From IMG/VR virus record IMGVR_UViG_2645728048_000030: a stretch of 35,944 bases of DNA, one strand, 5' to 3'. This DNA comes from a virus (Duplodnaviria; Heunggongvirae; Uroviricota; Caudoviricetes). Positions 1-10,528 of the stretch are shown here, piece by piece (the first letter of the stretch is position 1; every line of letters begins with the position of its first letter). The position numbers were made by a program, and so were the translations under genes. The notes under the pieces were generated by a model. It did no database searches, was not told the DNA's origin, and saw nothing but the letters and a program-made list of their open reading frames with translations.

Positions 1-696
1 TCACTTAGGGTATGGCTGAACCTTGAATAGCTTGGTATTTAGTCGCTTCCTTGCTCGCTTGTTCAGGAACCTGATGTAGCGATACTGATTAAATTTGTGC
101 ACCACGGCACGCTCTTTATTAGCCCGTAAATACACGCCTCGTTGTCCACCGCGTTTAATCGCGTTCATCGTTATCTCGTGATACCACTCACCATCCAGCT
201 CGTAGAACGTGCTTTCATGGCTGCCAATAAAATCAAAATTTGACGCCTGATACACAACGCCAGCACGTCCGCAGCGTTCGTCTGCAAAAGACTGAACCCA
301 CTCCACTGACGGATACAGTAACCTTATGGTTTTCAGTGCATAACTGATGGCCCGTGATTCAGAGTTGCGGGGCATGTCGTCGTGTAGCCACATGCGGTTC
401 AACTCCATATAGCCCCGGTTATCCGTTTCAAGCACGACACGACGACCTGAGTTGGGGTTAAGGGCATATCCCCACTGGAGAACGCCAACCAGATCGCGTC
501 CGCTGAATACTCCCAGGTGGAGGTAAGAGTTATTCACAAAACGGCGGGAATAGTGCTTTGTCTGAATAATTGTGCGGGCCAGCCAGCAAGATATGGTTTC
601 AACGCGCAGCTCCTTTGAACCATAGCCAACAATCTGGCCTTCATACTCAATAACGCACGGTTTCGTCAGAATGCGTGATTTTTTCTCTTTTCCCAC
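1..696 (-). CDS. mom: DNA modification protein Mom (anti-restriction adenine modification)
   Basis: Track ORF 1..726 is 241 codons from the first ATG. Codon 11 is GTG preceded by GGAGA about 6 nt upstream, giving 231 codons; the first ATG has no SD. Start overlaps the 3' end of com. Confidence 0.8.
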
Positions 697-835
697 AATG
701 TTTCTCCATGGGATGCTCGCAGGCATTCAGCATTATGATGTGACGTTTGCAACGCGGACACCTGATTTCAATGTGATCAAAGGAATCCGCCTTAAATAAC
801 AGTTTGTTGCAGTTTTTACAGCGAATTGATTTCAT
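647..835 (-). CDS. com: Com, zinc-finger translational activator of mom
   Basis: 62 codons with CxxC...CxxC motif, AAGGAG SD upstream, overlaps mom start as in Mu. Confidence 0.9.
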
Positions 836-950
836 CTCACCTCCTTTGCATCAATTCGCCACTATCTTAAAAAACATCATGGGTTGAGTGTGGTTATTGA
901 GACATAATCGATCTGTATTACCGATCGATTTGATTGATTCGATCGTCGTT
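836..950 (-). promoter_or_regulatory. mom operon control region: Pmom, candidate C-binding dyad, and three GATC (Dam) sites
   Basis: Three GATC within about 35 bp (near 910, 923, 941) overlapping the 3' end of gin; TTAT-N6-ATAA dyad near 894..907 upstream of com. Matches the known Dam/OxyR-regulated Pmom region of Mu. Confidence 0.6.
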
Positions 951-1511
951 TTCTATATGCGTTCGTTTCGCGGGGTGTTTTTTATACAGAGTTGACAGGG
1001 CCACATCGTAGATCAATGCAACCTGCTTGCGGGGGATTCCTTGTGCTAATAAACGCCCGGCCTGCTCCCATTCCGCTTTGGTTAGTTTAGGTGGTCGCCC
1101 ACCAATACGGCCTTTATTTCTGGCGGCAGCAAGTCCAGCCATCGTTCGCTCGATGATTAGTTCTCGTTCCATCTCAGCCAGGGCACCCATAACGTGGAAG
1201 AAAAAACGCCCCATTGGAGATGACGTATCAATACTGTCAGTAAGACTGCGAAAATTAATCCCTCGCTCTCGTAATTCCCCTACGAGAGAAATCAAATGTT
1301 TCATGCTTCGCCCGAGGCGATCCAGTTTCCAGACAACAAGTGTGTCACCTTTTTGAAGGCGCTTTAAAGCGCGTTTTAATCCAGGTCTGTCTGTCCTTGT
1401 TCCGCTTAATTTATCTTCAAATATTTGTTCACATCCTGCACAAACAAGAGCGTTTCGTTGCAGGTCTGTATTCTGGTCATTTGTTGATACCCTTACATAG
1501 CCAATCAGCAC
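918..1511 (-). CDS. gin: Gin serine recombinase (G-segment invertase)
   Basis: 197-codon ORF, N-terminus MLIGYVRVSTNDQ typical of Gin/Hin resolvase-type invertases. First codon reads as GTG in the sequence. C-terminus may be a few residues longer than I recall for Mu Gin (unverified). Confidence 0.9.
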   Translation of the reverse strand: MLIGYVRVSTNDQNTDLQRNALVCAGCEQIFEDKLSGTRTDRPGLKRALKRLQKGDTLVVWKLDRLGRSMKHLISLVGELRERGINFRSLTDSIDTSSPMGRFFFHVMGALAEMERELIIERTMAGLAAARNKGRIGGRPPKLTKAEWEQAGRLLAQGIPRKQVALIYDVALSTLYKKHPAKRTHIENDDRINQIDR

Positions 1512-1565: not shown

Positions 1566-1600
1566 TTATCTAAAACCTCGGTTTACAGGAAACGGTAAAC
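1566..1600. repeat. gix recombination site adjacent to gin
   Basis: ttatctaaaacctcggtttacaggaaacggtaaac; inverted copy at about 4750..4783 with 2 mismatches. Confidence 0.8.
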
Positions 1601-2425
1601 AAGGCTGGTAACGCTGTTCAGCGTTCTGGCGATACAATGACCGGAAAACTGAATCTACCACAGACATCTGCATTCGGCGTTGATACCGATAATGCACTGG
1701 GTGGTAATTCCATTACTCTCGGAGATAACGACACTGGTATTAAACAGGGCGGAGACGGTGTCCTTTTATTCTATTCAAATGGACAACTGGCATTTGGGCT
1801 TCAACCCGCATCTGCTGATTTTTATAAGCGGGTTGCATACATTCCTCAGGGAATAATTCCTGATGGAAGTGGCGCATTTGCAGACCAGTTGAATAATGCC
1901 ACCGCGCCTTTTGTTCAGACGCAGTTTGCCTGGAATCCCACTCCTGGTGGTCATTACGTGCCGATAGTTAAGGGCTTGTCCATTCGCAATGGACAGGGCT
2001 ATCCCGGCGCGGTCAGCTTTGGTTATTTGCTGACAGAACAGTATGGATTTCCGGTTCCATGTATTCATATGCGTGGCGATGGCGGTAATGATGCTTTATG
2101 GCAGTTTAACCCGAACGATAAATCTTTTATTTCACCGGGTGCTCTTGTTGCGGGTGGCATCATTTATAACACCGATGGAAATATATTTGGCGGGTGTTGG
2201 GGTTCAAATTTAGCTGATTATCTCAATAGCACATATGTAAGAGACATTCGACTTGGTAGCGCAGAATCAATATCAGCATGGCGAGGCCCTGGTTACTGGG
2301 ATACTTCTGGATATGTTCTGACCGCAGCCGGAAACAGCAACACCGATGAATTTATTGATACATTAACCAGAAGGCCTATTCAGAAGTTGATTGGTGGGAC
2401 ATATTATAACGTTGTGAGTATTTGA
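1574..2425 (+). CDS. Alternative tail-fibre variable segment S'v, silent in this orientation
   Basis: Track ORF 1637..2425. The frame is open from inside the gix site (encodes NLGLQETVN, as does the S side), so inversion would fuse it to the constant part of S. C-terminus is homologous to the S C-terminus. Confidence 0.75.
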
Positions 2426-2426
2426 C

Positions 2427-2954
2427 ATGATGCATTTAAAAAACATTAAAGCAGGGAACCCCAAAACACCTGAACAATACCAGTTAACCAAAAAAGCTGG
2501 AGTGGTCTGGCTTTATACTGAAGATGGTAAAAACTGGTACGAAGAACAAAAAAACTTTCAACCAGATACTATAAAAATTGCATACGATAAAAATAATGTG
2601 ATTGTTACCGTAAGCAAAGATGTTTCAACTATTAACCCGGAAGGTTTAAGTGTTGTTGAAGTATCCGATATTACGGCAAATCGTCGCGCAGACAATAACG
2701 GAAACTGGATGTTTCTGGATGGTAAAGTAGTAAAGCGGGAATATACAAAACAGGAGCTGCAACAGCAGGCAGAGTTACAAAAAGCCGCTTTGCTTTCCGA
2801 AGCGGAGTCTGTGATTCAACCGCTGGAACGTGCTGTCAGGCTGAATATGGCAACTAATGAGGAACGCGCACGACTGGAGTCATGGGAACGCTACAGTGTT
2901 CTGGTCAGCCGTGTGGATACGGCAAATCCTGAATGGCCACAAAAGCCTGAATAA
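2427..2954 (+). CDS. Alternative tail-fibre assembly protein U', silent orientation
   Basis: 175 codons, N-terminal 40 residues nearly identical to the U ORF on the opposite strand ([11 protein letters not shown]...). Confidence 0.8.
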
Positions 2955-2982: not shown

Positions 2983-3516
2983 TCATTCTGGTTGTTCCGG
3001 GAATGTTACAGGAAGAACAGAGGTATCTGTGGCATCAACCTGCTGCATGTATAACATCCAGTTAATGAGTCTTTGCCTGTCTGAATCGCTGATAATTCCC
3101 AGCGCAAGCTGTGTTTGCCAGCACTGCGTTTCCTCTCTGGCCTGTCGCAGCAAAATCTGTTTCTGAATTTCAGCCAGTTGACGTAGTTCTTCATCAGTCC
3201 GGGGGCGTTTCATGACCTTGCCATCCTGAAACACCCAGTCACCGAGAATATCGGCCCGGCGATTCGCTGTCGTGTCGGGTAATTCGACAACGCTCATTCC
3301 TTCCGGGTTAATAGACGACACATCTTTTTCAATATAGCGAATGATACCTCTGTCATCGTAAGCGATTTTTAGTGTGTCTGCCTGAAAGGCTTTTTGTGCC
3401 TCATACCAGTTCTTACCATCTTCAGCGTAAAGCCAGATAACTCCGTGTTTCTTTGTTAACTCATACTGTTCCAGTGTTTTAGCGTTACCCGCTTTTATGT
3501 TCTTTAAGTGCATCAT
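2983..3516 (-). CDS. U: Tail-fibre assembly protein U (expressed orientation)
   Basis: 177 codons directly downstream of S; paralogue of U'. Confidence 0.85.
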   Translation of the reverse strand: MMHLKNIKAGNAKTLEQYELTKKHGVIWLYAEDGKNWYEAQKAFQADTLKIAYDDRGIIRYIEKDVSSINPEGMSVVELPDTTANRRADILGDWVFQDGKVMKRPRTDEELRQLAEIQKQILLRQAREETQCWQTQLALGIISDSDRQRLINWMLYMQQVDATDTSVLPVTFPEQPE

Positions 3517-3517
3517 A

Positions 3518-5278
3518 TTAAACGCTCGCTACATTATACCAGGTGCCATTTATATACTTTTGAACGGGTCTGTAATAAACGCCCGCTATATTATCGGCAG
3601 AGTTGGACCCTGTATCCTGAACATTAATACCAGACAATACATGACCTGACGGGCACTGGAAATTCCATGTTTGCCAGTTGTTCACACCATGATATTGCTG
3701 TGAACCAAGACGAACATCTTTCACATAGCGGGAATCAAAATTCCCCCAGTTGCTGGGTTGTATCTGACCGTTAACAGCAAATATCACCGAGTTATCTGTA
3801 TTTCGCTGACTATAGAAATGCCAGCCTGAATCATCACCAAGCTCTGCAACAGTTGGTCTTGACGAATTTCCCCACAAGCTAAATGATGCATTACGGGCAG
3901 CGGTATTTGCACTTGAAAGTGTGAAGAACTTACTTTCCCCAGCCTGAATACCCTTTAATGATCTTGCTGAACCATTTATAAAGCGGAATACATGCACACC
4001 ATTAGCATAAGCATCCAGCACCCCATCACCATTTTGTTTAAACCCGGTATCGTTATCTCCTAAAACTATTGAATTTCCACCCAGGGCATTAGCCGTTCCA
4101 ATCCCCAGATTTCCGCTAAAAATGGCATTAATACCGAGTATTGAGTGAGAACAATAAAACCCTCGCCCATTGTTAAAATCCAGAATGGCTTGTGCGTTCG
4201 TGCTTTCTGTCGCGGGATTAGTTGCTCCCCACTTATATGTTGTTTGACCGACAGTATAATCCTGAGTTGGAACAATAACCGTTAGCCCTTCTTCAGCAGA
4301 AACCCGCACAGGAAAAGCCCTGCCTTCAACGTAAAAAACGCTGCATACATCATCTTCTTTAAGGCTTGTTACAATGGAATGGATTGCGCGCTCATTAGTC
4401 TGATACGTCGAAAAATAACCTGCCGCATATGAACCACGATCAGTCCAGCCACCAGGCATTACCATTCCATTGAATTCGCAGTTATTCATTGCGTAATCAC
4501 TACTGGCACATGTGGTCGTTATAATCACTCTGGAAGCCAGCTCGCCAGTGCCGCCTGTGGAACGCCGGAAAATAACTGGATACCACTTTCCACCAATTGC
4601 ATTAGACGGCGCATTAAATGCGTACTGCCGCATTCCTTTTTTCTTATCCACCTCGCCTTTGCTGTAAACATTAATGTTACTCAGGAAGCGATCCTTATCA
4701 GGAATATCCGCGCCGTTCTGGTTTTTCTGTAATGCGCCAGAAGCCTGATTTACCGTTTCCTGCAAACCGAGGTTTTGGATAAACAGCGGCTTATTGGGAA
4801 TATCTGCTCCGTTCCGGTCTTTTGCCAGACGGGCACTGGCATTATCCATCGCAATTTTCACCGCTTTTGCGGTGGCTGCCAGCGTTTCACTGGGGCTGTC
4901 AGTGGCACTGGTTAGCTGAACGAGTCCTTTTTTGTTCAGGCTGGCATCATAAATATCCAGATTTTCACGTGCTGTACGCTGTGCTGATGCCCCGGCAGTT
5001 TTAATTTCGCTGAGGTTATTTTTTATCAGCAGTGCGTTATTGCTCATAATGGCTTTAATGGATAGTGCAAGCTGGTTTAATTTTGTTTTATCCGGTTGAA
5101 TACCGGCTTCTTCCAGCGTGTTTAATAACTCCGCCTGCACAATATTAAACCAGTCCATGCCGGGCCATGTGATAACATTATTCCCGTCACCTTCTGAAAA
5201 CCAGCGAACGATAGCACTACGCTGGGCGGATACGGGCGGCATGACGGTTACGCCGCTGTCGTTATCAATATAAAACAT
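3518..5278 (-). CDS. S: Tail fibre protein S (constant part plus variable part in G segment)
   Basis: 586 codons; gix site lies in codons about 166-177; C-terminal 190 residues homologous to S'v. Confidence 0.85.
   Translation of the reverse strand: MFYIDNDSGVTVMPPVSAQRSAIVRWFSEGDGNNVITWPGMDWFNIVQAELLNTLEEAGIQPDKTKLNQLALSIKAIMSNNALLIKNNLSEIKTAGASAQRTARENLDIYDASLNKKGLVQLTSATDSPSETLAATAKAVKIAMDNASARLAKDRNGADIPNKPLFIQNLGLQETVNQASGALQKNQNGADIPDKDRFLSNINVYSKGEVDKKKGMRQYAFNAPSNAIGGKWYPVIFRRSTGGTGELASRVIITTTCASSDYAMNNCEFNGMVMPGGWTDRGSYAAGYFSTYQTNERAIHSIVTSLKEDDVCSVFYVEGRAFPVRVSAEEGLTVIVPTQDYTVGQTTYKWGATNPATESTNAQAILDFNNGRGFYCSHSILGINAIFSGNLGIGTANALGGNSIVLGDNDTGFKQNGDGVLDAYANGVHVFRFINGSARSLKGIQAGESKFFTLSSANTAARNASFSLWGNSSRPTVAELGDDSGWHFYSQRNTDNSVIFAVNGQIQPSNWGNFDSRYVKDVRLGSQQYHGVNNWQTWNFQCPSGHVLSGINVQDTGSNSADNIAGVYYRPVQKYINGTWYNVASV
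4750..4783. repeat. gix recombination site inside S
   Basis: tttaccgtttcctgcaaaccgaggttttggataa; inverted repeat of the site at 1566..1600. Confidence 0.8.
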
Positions 5279-6893: not shown

Positions 6894-7331
6894 TTAAACC
6901 CCGTTAAATGCTGCTTTAAACTCATAAGGAATAACGGAACCATCCGGTAATGTCAGTGCAATGTAGAGGTATAACCAGCCCTGATGTAACTGTTCCGCTC
7001 TGACGTTAATCGCACTTACCCGGCCCGCTGTTTTCAGCCATTCCAGCGCCTCTTCGGCATACCCTCTGGCGCGTTCCAGCGTATCCGGTGTGGCTTTTTC
7101 ACGTGATAACAGCCACAACCGCGAACCGATGGGGCGGTCGCGGTAACTGTCACCCCACCATCCACGGCGATCATCTGAACCATCCGGCAGCGTGTCAGAA
7201 TCCAGCGCGCGCCGGTCTGTAAACAGGGAGATTGTCACATCGGTTGTCAGGCTGTCGTCGGTCAGCATATCAATGCCATCCTGTGCAATATCGCCGCGTC
7301 CGTTCGTCCAGATAATGGCTAAATCGGTCAT
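6894..7331 (-). CDS. Baseplate wedge protein, gpW/gp25-like (Mu gp46-like)
   Basis: 145 codons, size and position typical of the gp25-like baseplate protein. Confidence 0.7.
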   Translation of the reverse strand: MTDLAIIWTNGRGDIAQDGIDMLTDDSLTTDVTISLFTDRRALDSDTLPDGSDDRRGWWGDSYRDRPIGSRLWLLSREKATPDTLERARGYAEEALEWLKTAGRVSAINVRAEQLHQGWLYLYIALTLPDGSVIPYEFKAAFNGV

Positions 7332-9048: not shown

Positions 9049-10528
9049 TAATCACCTCAATACTGACACCACCGGGAACAAACAACGGGTTGCTGATACC
9101 GTTCCTGCGGGCCAGCCGTTGCCAGTTCCGGCTGTTTCCTGTGTAACGGTACAGAGCCACCATTGCAGGCATCGTCTCCGGCAGGCGGTGCGTTTCACTG
9201 CCTGCCAGTTGCAGCCCGCGTTTTTCCAGGTCGGCAACAACCAGCAGACGCAGTTGCGTAAGCTGAACGCTGTCTGTCGAAAAGCCCTGCTCAGATGCCG
9301 TCAGAATGACGGTATCCAGCGCTGCCCCCAGCATGGCGGCTGTTTTTCCGATATCGGACACACTTTCAAATACCGGGGGCGTGGCTGTACCACTGTCTGA
9401 AAAGGATACCTGTGAAAAGCCGCCGTCCGGGGTTATGGCAGTTAACTGTAACTGTCCCTGTGTGACGGTAGCGGATGTGCTGCTGGCCCCGCTGGCTGTG
9501 CCGGTTGTGGTGGACGGGGCATCCAGTACAGGTGCACGGGCGGCATTATCCATCCGGCGACTGAAATCCAGTGCCGCAGTCAGTGCCTGGCTTGCTGCCT
9601 CCGCCCGGTATGTCTGTGCTGCTGCCAGCATGACGTAGTTCAGTGTGGCAATATTTTTTTCTGCAACCGGACTGTTGTACGAGGTTGTGATTGTCCCCTG
9701 TCTGCCTGCGGTGGCGGCATGGCGACGTTCGAATCGCTGCGCCAGACGGTTCCATGTGGAAAATGCTGTCCGGGTATCGCATAACGATGAAACGCCGGAC
9801 AGCGCCCCCATCAGCGAGGAGGCCAGCATGGCAGGCTGGTTAATCAGGCTGGTCACAGAGCCTTTCATCGCAGAAAGCGATCCCATCAGACCGCTGACAG
9901 TCTGCGTAACCCCCAGATTGTCCACCGCATCACTGATATCATCGATGACACCGGTTACAGCTTCCATCACGGCGGTTGCCGCCGCAGTGCCATCTTTTAC
10001 GGTCTGCCAGACAGAGGACAGCGTATCTCCCAGAGAACCGGTTACAGCAACGGCCTGTGCCGGTACGGCTGCACTGGTGTCTGTCTCTGAGTCCGGGGCA
10101 GTATCCTGCAACGACGGATAAACGGTAACGGTGAACGCGTAATAATTCAGTTCATCCGCTTTAGTGCGGCATTCCCATGAATCCACCATGACGTCCACAG
10201 TGCCGAAATCAGGATGTACCAGCTCACCGCTACCCGGAGCATCAAGAGCATCCATCAGCGCACCCGCTTCATCTCTGGCTGTTTCTGCGTTGCTGTTCAG
10301 AATGCAGGCGCTGAATGTACGGGAGCGAAGCTTTTTCCCCAGGTCATTGACGCCGCCGGTATCACGTAACGGGTACTCGCGTTTAACCAGGCGACGTCCG
10401 CCAGCCTGTTTTTGCTCCTCGATGACGAGAAACGGCACGTTACGAAACGTGCCTTTGCCGGTTGTTTTCTTACCACCGCTGATTTTATCCCGGACAGCAT
10501 TAACGGCATTTAAAGCATCTTCAAACAT
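9041..10528 (-). CDS. DNA circularization protein (Mu N-like, gp43)
   Basis: 495 codons directly after the tape-measure gene; position and size as in Mu. Confidence 0.65.

Follow-up and report, generated by a model that had tools for sequence, protein, structure and literature searches.

The region described here serves a genuine Muvirus prophage of E. coli as its host-range switch; the tail-fibre gene, S, carries a patch of about 1 kb from P2-like prophages. The direct repeat around the crossover site within S is no scar of that exchange. We put the probability of this reading at about 0.85. The DNA comes from a stretch of 35,944 nucleotides (IMG/VR record IMGVR_UViG_2645728048_000030), which we call the window. 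From 5300 to 30200 the window is 98 to 99% identical to Mu and D108 over 97 to 99% of the length, and gin, com, and mom stand in Mu order. The exact S protein occurs in three NCBI assemblies, GCA_049987685.1, GCA_001265995.1, and GCA_000691105.1, on contigs of 65 to 220 kb with different insertion sites, and one flank matches E. coli pqiABC at 100% identity. That Mu, P1, P2, and lambdoid phages exchange fibre segments horizontally has been described since 1992, as have relic crossover sites in non-invertible fibres. Our case is a clean but ordinary example of this known mosaicism, a new allele of a well-known kind. It is also a well-resolved natural example, with breakpoints placed to within 35 to 49 bp and both parental types identified.

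The G segment and its two fibre cassettes

The invertase gene gin adjoins the invertible segment (Table 1). The region from 903 to 1606 shares 97% DNA identity with the gin region of Mu, and Pfam identified the Resolvase and HTH_7 domains on the identical gin gene from three assemblies. We found exactly two gix-like sites in the window, in inverted orientation (0 in 100 shuffles). gixL lies within a 56-nt inverted repeat that pairs with 4727-4782, and the central dinucleotide, TC, is the same in gixL and gixR. The reading frame is open across gix in both orientations: as found, it encodes a fibre of 586 aa, and when we inverted the segment in silico, S'v was fused to Sc to give an intact S' of 451 aa. 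The S-U and S'v-U' cassette pairs face each other, each with one Caudo_TAP chaperone; the DNA of U is 99% identical to the U gene of a Mu-like prophage in E. coli 2014C-3075. Given the 97% identity of the gin region to that of Mu, a sis enhancer with Fis sites probably lies in the 5' part of gin. Judging from the sequence, inversion of the G segment is probably taking place. The three assemblies with the exact S were retrieved by that very protein, so the opposite orientation could not show in them.

Table 1. Features of the fibre switch in the window (residue numbers refer to S)
Feature	Position	Strand	Basis or remark
gin, serine DNA invertase	918..1511	-	197-aa ORF; Pfam Resolvase and HTH_7
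gixL, 26-bp crossover site	1566..1591	+	one mismatch to Mu gix
S'v, silent variable fibre part	1574..2425	+	frame open from gixL to stop; 283 aa including 8 gix-encoded
U', predicted tail-fibre assembly chaperone for S'	2427..2954	+	175 aa; Pfam Caudo_TAP, E = 7.5e-37
U, predicted tail-fibre assembly chaperone for S	2983..3516	-	177 aa; Pfam Caudo_TAP, E = 2.9e-28
S, tail-fibre gene as currently assembled	3518..5278	-	586-aa ORF; PHROG tail-fibre families; PDB 5YVQ and 8JU3 matches
Distal domain, presumed receptor-binding tip needing U	3521..4132 (residues 383-586)	-	sequence matches
Imported patch, about 1 kb, P2-like prophage fibre cassette	3745..4790	-	97-100% identity to E. coli TW10590 and GDAR2-2 prophage cassettes
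Middle beta-rich fibre module, bulk of the "extra" segment	4136..4657 (residues ~208-381)	-	tblastn, PHROGs, AF2 model
Linker unit 2, cassette leader	4658..4753 (residues 176-207, VNQASGALQKNQNGADIPDKDRFLSNINVYSK)	-	contains repeat copy 4694-4726
Linker unit 1	4754..4849 (residues 144-175, MDNASARLAKDRNGADIPNKPLFIQNLGLQET)	-	contains repeat copy 4790-4822 and gixR
gixR, crossover site	4757..4782	-	one mismatch to Mu gix; encodes residues 166-174, (F)IQNLGLQE
Sc, constant baseplate-proximal part, outside the G segment	4783..5278	-	residues 1-165
Phage_fiber_2 repeat in Sc	4820-4942 (residues 113-153)	-	Pfam PF03406, E = 1.4e-16

S begins outside the G segment, with Sc carrying the baseplate attachment and the Phage_fiber_2 repeat, and crosses gixR into one of two variable cassettes, each followed by its own chaperone (U or U'). 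Gin would flip the 3.2-kb segment between gixL and gixR, giving either the 586-aa fibre or the 451-aa alternative. In the 586-aa fibre, the part after gix comprises three modules in turn: a 32-residue NGADIP linker that leads the cassette, a beta-rich internal module of about 175 residues, and a distal domain of the P2 gpH type, about 200 residues long, that would bind the receptor and be folded by U.

In Mu, host range is set by the G(+) and G(-) fibres (PMC11915804). The Mu G segment has the same gene order as the one described here (gp48, S, U, U', S'v, gin, com, mom), its Sc and gin region are 99% and 97% identical in DNA to ours, gix is one mismatch apart, and its ORF likewise continues across gix both ways. 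It differs in that neither variable cassette of the window is Mu's, and the expressed one has the P2-like patch. By leader homology to the Mu reference, the window is in a state like G(-).

The structural-database matches of S are PDB 5YVQ and 8JU3, the S and S' fibres of Mu; the latter is the G(-) fibre (Mori et al. 2024, as cited in PMC11915804). Residues 1-188 are near-identical to the 5YVQ chain, and residues 491-585 match the tip of Mu S in that structure (E = 4.8e-16). Pfam returned nothing on S beyond the Phage_fiber_2 repeat, and an NCBIfam search of S and U gave no match. With both Phage_fiber_2 and the conserved tip ..RP.QK.INGTWYN.. present, S is of the chaperone-dependent trimeric kind represented by Mu S, P2 H, and lambda Stf. 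Its distal domain is 63 to 64% identical to the C-termini of P2 gpH and phage Tongde S (63% for gpH residues 473-669, with a 20-residue stretch noted in gpH), and another P2-like fibre shares 83% identity with its last 96 residues. P2 gpH and gene K of phage 186 differ from S in being non-invertible, with a relic crossover site, no invertase, no second cassette, and another proximal variable module; in the 186 record, a "Mu-like inversion crossover site" is marked within gene K, just after DNANARLAKDRNGADIP.

Borders and probable origin of the patch in S

A sequence-only reading of this DNA had described S as mosaic. This is strongly supported, and the breakpoints are now mapped. By DNA identity, S reads as a three-part mosaic of Sc, the patch, and a remainder that goes with the G segment. 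Sc is 99% identical to Mu and phage Tongde down to position 4743 and, together with the region upstream, 99.5% identical to the 2014C-3075 prophage (NZ_CP027447.1). Across the patch we found 97 to 100% identity to fibre cassettes of P2-like E. coli prophages (among them TW10590, GDAR2-2, and O103:H2 12009); over the same stretch the Mu-like relative shows 62 to 83% identity or has no counterpart. The rest of the G segment, from 1566 to about 3710, is mostly 99 to 100% identical to the 2014C-3075 prophage, with a divergent stretch at about 1700-2100 (80 to 94%). Phage Tongde, the best match in the phage collection, was at one point taken as the backbone, and U then seemed to come from a third source; we dropped that idea when U, searched by itself, led to the far closer 2014C-3075 prophage.

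The left breakpoint lies inside 4742-4790, a 49-bp interval that contains the whole of gix. The right one lies inside 3711-3745, in the conserved GNFDSRYVKDVRL coding block, where gix is absent; we placed it by the identity per 100 nt and by more than 90 consecutive informative sites of the P2-like type. For the U junction, a four-way MAFFT alignment was misleading on identities, and pairwise BLAST profiles were used instead. The match to S begins at nucleotide 489-497, which is gix, in 1,228 genome records of E. coli. Many of these matches are 95 to 97% identical and lie in P2-like prophages beside a recombinase, either expressed or silent.

The P2-like prophage cassettes have the same leader, middle module, and distal domain as S and are flanked, as here, by a Gin-family recombinase and two chaperone genes. 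Since both of their cassettes have the NGADIP leader, the inverted repeats of these prophages are about 100 bp long. Their constant part, however, is like that of P2 gpH (...VIEYLGLQETV) and is without the first NGADIP copy. In the 2014C-3075 prophage, by comparison, S'v, U', U, and the tip of Sv are mostly 99 to 100% identical to the window, but its G segment was assembled the other way round. The fibre expressed there is the 451-aa type that is silent in the window, and the other cassette of that prophage has a P2-H-type proximal module (GDTLSGGLTF...WFETGDNGNEYFKW) in place of the NGADIP leader and middle module.

Such a chimera could be an assembly artefact that joined Mu-like and P2-like prophages of one genome through their common gix and fibre-tip sequence. 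Both junctions do lie within sequence common to the two prophage types, and P2-like prophages with the same cassette occur in many E. coli strains. We nonetheless consider an artefact exceedingly improbable, with the same 586-aa protein and gene order recurring in the three separate assemblies. In addition, the parents have no more than 49 bp in common at the left junction, and even there their sequences differ; the frame is intact over both junctions.

The patch replaced the matching stretch, from the leader through the middle module into the distal domain, two thirds of which it covers, and the exchange ends in two blocks common to both parents, gix and the GNFDSRYVKDVRL block. We infer that prophages resident in the same host underwent homologous recombination, and that the patch alters receptor specificity. 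We assume that transfer went from the P2-like to the Mu-like phage, the one basis for this direction being the backbone around the patch; a third, common donor of the patch is possible.

According to Sandmeier's model, the left junction would be the product of the invertase, which would have recombined, site-specifically, the gix sites of two prophages in one host, and the right junction alone would be homologous. The left interval does include the entire gix, and the P2-like prophages with the donor cassette have their own Gin-family recombinase and a near-identical gix. However, invertases of the Gin and Hin systems have a strong preference for inverted sites on one molecule, together with an enhancer. 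The 49 bp of common sequence in the left interval is also enough for relaxed homologous recombination, and the right end falls in a conserved coding block without gix. Fibre-gene exchange among unrelated phages is well documented, and PMC3945230 (citing Haggard-Ljungquist 1992 and Sandmeier 1992, 1994) credits it to the associated invertases. On these grounds we regard an invertase-made left junction as possible but somewhat unlikely.

The locus illustrates how modules pass between unrelated temperate phages at conserved fibre blocks, and it can guide the choice of fusion points for engineered chimeric fibres. The presumed specificity-determining part of the fibre matches that of P2-like prophages common in O145, O111, O103, and other strains. 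Since this part is of the P2-like type, host range should be predicted from those cassettes and not from Mu. The practical value of the finding is in annotation and host-range prediction.

The proximal modules of the variable part

The variable part of S after gix had been estimated at about 411 residues and its silent counterpart at about 274. We count 411 for S and about 275 for the silent part without its gix-encoded residues. The proposed homology between the C-terminal 190 or so residues of S and S'v is real (BLASTP of S 391-586 against S'v 34-283, E = 5e-20, 31% identity, 26% gaps), but it is patchy and not even throughout, being strong only at one 15-residue conserved block and over the last 75 or so residues. 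The extra segment of about 220 residues in S was likewise confirmed: S 176-390 is 215 aa long, where S'v has about 25 aa. It is no insertion into a fibre of the S'v type but another set of proximal modules; in the closest Mu-like relative, a P2-H-type module of about 100 aa takes its place. The segment consists of the linker and a module of about 175 residues that recurs inside otherwise different fibres.

This middle module was found by tblastn in 304 phage records, among them myoviruses, siphoviruses, P1-like and T5-like phages, and T4-like phages of Aeromonas. Its matches to PHROGs 6578, 745, and 454 are internal ones. A whole-library search located it in 128 protein clusters (50% identity), at positions from 36 to about 2000 and joined to several different upstream and downstream neighbours. 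The fibres of phages 9g, JenK1, PD328, 2H10, and P22H4 have the same module at 59 to 80% amino-acid identity, with an NGADIP linker before it, but they are much longer than S and have other tips. A second inverted cassette is annotated in none of the five. Neither 9g nor P22H4 has an invertase gene beside the fibre gene; in 2H10 a DNA invertase gene lies just downstream of the fibre and chaperone genes.

The AF2 model of the module is beta-rich, with a mean pLDDT of 61, and its core, NNCEFNG..GGW.DR..YA.G.F...ERAIHSI, is strictly conserved. The top fold matches are phage tailspikes, weak and below any reliable threshold, and Pfam and NCBIfam gave no domain match. Instead of a shaft or knob element, the module could be an enzymatic domain or a second one for receptor binding, and so confer dual specificity on the fibre. 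Its predicted globular, beta-rich form with a strictly conserved core would suit such a domain, as would the tailspikes among its fold matches. Yet these matches are below threshold and no known domain was recognized. Furthermore, the module is paired with many different tips and, in long fibres, is separated from the C-terminal tip by hundreds of residues. A second specificity domain therefore seems to us improbable.

The direct repeat and the NGADIP linker

The sequence-only reading also reported an imperfect 29-bp direct repeat around gix, about 79% identical and with copies 31 codons apart. The repeat is present and brackets gixR, but its dimensions have to be corrected to 33 nt, 82% identity, and a spacing of 96 nt (32 codons). 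Its best 33-nt match (27/33) exceeds the maximum of 23 seen in 300 codon shuffles and is thus beyond chance. At the protein level the repeat extends to two 32-residue units with 13 of 32 residues identical; their BLOSUM62 local score of 72 compares with a shuffle mean of 18.8 and maximum of 37, and 0 of 1000 shuffles reach it. Over the whole 96-nt unit the copies are about 51% identical. The DNA of linker unit 2 is 91% identical to the leader of Mu S'v and 98 to 99% identical to the P2-like prophage cassettes. We sought a third, more distant linker copy in Sc and found none that was significant.

The repeat had been taken to suggest past duplication or recombination at the inversion crossover, and for this phage that view is not supported. 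The observations named beforehand as speaking against it, the same arrangement in Mu and a generic NGADIP motif, were largely what we found. The reference Mu S' (G-), the SfMu S as deposited, and Mu_3F6 all have both NGADIP copies, one at residue 156 and one at 188, on either side of gix. Mu S' and SfMu S have the pair because each continues from an identical Sc into a leader of the same kind, VNQASGALQ(Q/K)NQNGADIP(G/D)KD. After the leader, Mu S' differs from S in continuing into an unrelated domain (TKNIGACRAYS...), and it is similar again in the last 75 or so residues only. Two copies also occur in the non-invertible fibre of phage 9g, where the gix-like peptide NVGLRETV stands between the units. 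The JenK1 and PD328 alignments span both units, and Salmonella phage ST64B has the same two-unit arrangement with the variant NGGDIP as its second copy. In the P2-like phage P22H4 and the lambdoid phage 2H10, a single fused linker unit is joined directly to the middle module.

A local duplication or aberrant recombination at the crossover in this lineage would account both for the repeat and for insertion of the extra segment. The two copies are indeed truly homologous, and they flank gix exactly. However, copy 2 belongs to the cassette leader shared with P2-like invertible prophages, whose constant part is without copy 1. A recent tandem duplication would show near-identical copies in one lineage; here the identity, 82% over 33 nt and about 51% over the unit, is far too low for a recent event, and the same pair occurs in Mu S', SfMu, and 9g and in near-identical form in ST64B. 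We consider such a local origin very improbable. The repeat is instead a linker motif common to many phage fibres and not a scar of exchange. It arises from two family-wide linker instances set side by side: gix is flanked by direct repeats because one copy ends the constant parts of the Mu type and another begins this class of cassette. Among the matches listed in a full-text literature search for "NGADIP", none concerned phage fibres.

More speculatively, and with considerable doubt, we suggest that the 32-codon linker serves as a recombination adaptor and is not a passive spacer. If so, crossover between the copies would delete gix and lock the cassette onto the constant part, and the product of such locking would be the single fused unit seen in P22H4 and 2H10 (DNAEKRLQKDQNGADIPDK.RFL.NIN). 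The reverse event would bring a fixed fibre into an invertible system, and 9g and ST64B, with their two-unit fibres, would preserve relics of cassettes once in inversion systems. One defined mechanism would then connect invertible with non-invertible fibres across the Mu-, P2-, lambda-, and 9g-like phages.

The invertible fibre locus

The window carries a nearly complete Muvirus genome on the reverse strand. Over positions 5300-30200, Mu and D108 align to 97-99% of the sequence at 98-99% identity, and the genes at the left end follow the Mu order. We found a protein identical to S, the expressed fibre, in three NCBI assemblies (GCA_049987685.1, GCA_001265995.1 and GCA_000691105.1), in Mu-like prophages at differing chromosomal sites. 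One prophage flank matches E. coli pqiABC at 100% identity, which makes the host E. coli, and the three occurrences mean that S is not a one-off artefact. The neighbouring host genes differ between assemblies, with pqiABC beside the prophage in one case and a PBP1-type gene in a second; Mu, which inserts by transposition, would be expected to produce this pattern.

Features of the fibre locus and segments of the S mosaic
Feature	Position	Strand	Remark
mom	1-726		
com	647-835		
gin	918-1511		
Silent fibre cassette	1574-2425		reading frame
Caudo_TAP chaperone gene	2427-2954	plus	
Caudo_TAP chaperone gene	2983-3516	minus	
Fibre gene S	3518-5278	minus	586 aa
Constant part (Sc) and upstream	5900 down to 4743		99% to Mu and phage Tongde
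Patch	~3745-4790		97-100% to P2-like E. coli prophage cassettes
Rest of G segment	1566 to ~3710		mostly 99-100% to Mu-like prophage of E. coli 2014C-3075
Linker / cassette leader	S residues 176-207		
Middle module	S residues ~208-381		discrete, beta-rich

There are exactly two gix sites, the 26-bp crossover sites of the invertase Gin, at 1566-1591 and 4757-4782 and inverted with respect to each other. Each differs from Mu gix by one mismatch, both have the central TC dinucleotide, and none occurs in shuffled sequence. When the DNA between them is inverted in silico, an intact alternative fibre of 451 aa results. The anatomy of the switch and both of its reading frames can thus be read directly from the window. 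Judged by sequence, the locus is a Mu-type invertible fibre switch, all of whose sequence-level defining features that we tested were present. The host range of Mu is set by its G(+) and G(-) fibres (PMC11915804). By analogy with Mu, Gin would flip the G segment, and the assembly chaperone U would fold the distal domain of S.

The "expressed" cassette carries a Mu S′-type leader (NQASGALQ.NQNGADIP) and the "silent" one a Mu S-type leader, so the S and S′ labels are arbitrary here. In the closest relative, the prophage of E. coli 2014C-3075 (NZ_CP027447.1, 792583-803143), the G segment is assembled in the opposite orientation, and the 451-aa fibre is the one expressed. In P2-like invertible prophages, both cassettes begin with the same gix and NGADIP leader (at 7001-7100 and 10239-10336 in one locus, and likewise in a second), giving inverted repeats of ~100 bp, compared with 56 nt at 80% complementarity in the window.

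A P2-like patch in S

An earlier, sequence-only reading proposed that S is a mosaic. Indeed, S maps to a Mu Sc (residues 1-165, outside the G segment), a P2-like patch and a 2014C-3075-type remainder. Tongde was considered as the best backbone relative and was displaced by the 2014C-3075 prophage, which we found by searching with U alone. Across the patch, the window sides with the P2-like cassettes at more than 90 consecutive informative sites, and across 3418-3710 most informative sites agree with the Mu-like relative. This pattern identifies an imported patch of ~1 kb. Its left breakpoint lies within the 49-bp interval 4742-4790, which includes gix, and its right breakpoint within 3711-3745, codons 512-524, which form the conserved GNFDSRYVKDVRL block. 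The Mu-like backbone is kept for the last ~60 codons of S and for the gene of U.

The match of S to 1,228 E. coli genome records starts at 4782-4790, exactly at gix, many records being at 95-97%; in none of them do Sc and this variable part occur together. These matches fall in P2-like prophages, which carry two cassettes, two chaperone genes and a recombinase of the Gin family. In TW10590 and GDAR2-2 the matching cassette is joined to a P2-H-like constant part, and in O103:H2 12009 it lies silent beside the recombinase. The chimera of Mu Sc and this cassette occurs in three draft assemblies, and was found neither in the phage collection nor in any of 5,426 complete E. coli genomes. Fibre exchange among unrelated phages is known and has been attributed to associated invertases (PMC3945230). 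The chimera is a new allele within this known type of fibre mosaicism. We infer that the patch would have been gained when Mu-like and P2-like prophages residing in one host recombined at two blocks that they share, and that it would change receptor specificity. The left junction may be the work either of the invertase acting at gix or of homologous recombination over the shared 49 bp.

The 2014C-3075 prophage is more divergent from the window (80-94%) at ~1700-2100. Positions 2000-2100, in the silent cassette, share only 80% identity with Tongde and with the 2014C-3075 prophage, against 94-100% in the surrounding DNA; this points to a further small patch in the silent fibre, either recombinant or hypervariable.

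Modules of the S fibre

Downstream of gix, which codes for residues 166-174, S continues for 411 residues, compared with ~275 in the silent frame; the variable part of S is thus the longer one, as noted earlier. The segment held to be extra does lie between gix and the shared C-terminal domain, but it is not an insertion: the 2014C-3075 relative has a P2-H-type proximal module (GDTLSGGLTF...WFETGDNGNEYFKW, ~100 aa) at this place, so the window carries a different module set. The proposed homology of the S C-terminus to the silent cassette is real. The C-terminal 196 residues align (E = 5e-20), but patchily, at 31% identity with 26% gaps, and the match is good only at a 15-residue block and the last ~75 residues.

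The middle module is present in 304 phage records, at 80% identity in P2-like phages and 59-63% in 9g-like and lambdoid side fibres, and also occurs in a P1 variant, T5-like phages and Aeromonas T4-like phages. It matches PHROGs 6578, 745 and 454 at internal positions. The 128 protein clusters that contain it (the longest protein has 2,682 aa) place it anywhere from position 36 to ~2000, and in alignment it has several different upstream and downstream partners around a strictly conserved core (NNCEFNG, GGW.DR and ERAIHSI). S is modular in make-up, and in these sequence contexts the middle module behaves as a shuffled unit. In a P1-like phage (Punavirus P1 variant MH422554, 2952-5432), an 826-aa cassette ORF containing this module at residues ~184-365 directly adjoins the invertase gene, so invertase-adjacent cassettes can be long and multi-modular.

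In its distal domain (residues 383-586), S shares 63-64% identity with the C-terminal ends of Tongde S and P2 gpH, and the domain also matches the tip of Mu S in PDB 5YVQ. This domain is itself a sub-mosaic, split at the FDSRYVKDVRLG block. The last ~75 residues of S (SQQY.GVNNWQTWNFQCPSGHVLSGINVQDTGSNSADNIAGVYYRPVQKYINGTWYNVASV; window 3518-3745) recur nearly unchanged on the P2-like fibre of Peduovirus NC_070904 (1215-3236), there following a domain of Mu S (G+) type.

The repeat around gix

A direct repeat does bracket gix, at 4694-4726 and 4790-4822; it measures 33 nt at 82% identity with a spacing of 96 nt (32 codons), rather than 29 bp, ~79% and 31 codons as first noted. It scores 27/33, and the best of 300 codon shuffles reached 23, so the repeat is not due to chance. 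As protein it forms two 32-residue units, MDNASARLAKDRNGADIPNKPLFIQNLGLQET and VNQASGALQKNQNGADIPDKDRFLSNINVYSK, whose score of 72 was matched by none of 1000 shuffles (highest, 37); unit 1 has gix at its end.

The repeat had been taken as a sign of past duplication or recombination at the crossover. This did not hold, as the same pair is present in Mu S′, SfMu, Mu_3F6 and 9g. NGADIP stands at residues 156 and 188, with gix between, both in the window S and in reference Mu S′ (G- orientation); SfMu S as deposited and Mu_3F6 have this pair too. The phage 9g fibre, without an adjacent invertase, has two copies with NVGLRETV between them, and the ST64B fibre, with no annotated invertase nearby, has two units, the second with NGGDIP, separated by NVGLGETI. 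JenK1 and PD328 align in a single piece across both units. P22H4 and lambdoid 2H10 have one fused unit (DNAEKRLQKDQNGADIPDK.RFL.NIN) directly joined to the middle module, and in P2-like invertible prophages the constant part ends in ...VIEYLGLQETV without copy 1, copy 2 being on both cassettes. Given this spread of forms, the repeat is a family-wide linker motif marking module boundaries, not a record of duplication or aberrant recombination here. The same arrangement in the Mu reference and a generic linker, which the sequence-only reading had named as counting against it, are largely what we found. Its observation is confirmed and its interpretation partly supported: the mosaic is real, and the repeat is no scar left by an event at this site. 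What we found is ordinary, and known biology accounts for most of it. Linker direct repeats around gix could offer a route to lock cassettes into inversion systems or to capture them from these, an idea that the one-unit and two-unit forms fit rather than demonstrate and that is the only mildly new point.

Relic crossover sites kept in non-invertible P2-family fibre genes have been recorded before: in phage 186 (U32222.1, 1571-1596) a "Mu-like inversion crossover site" is annotated in gene K, and P2 gpH contains IEYLGLQETV. The phage 186 site is preceded by DNANARLAKDRNGADIP, a sequence almost identical to that at the end of Mu Sc.
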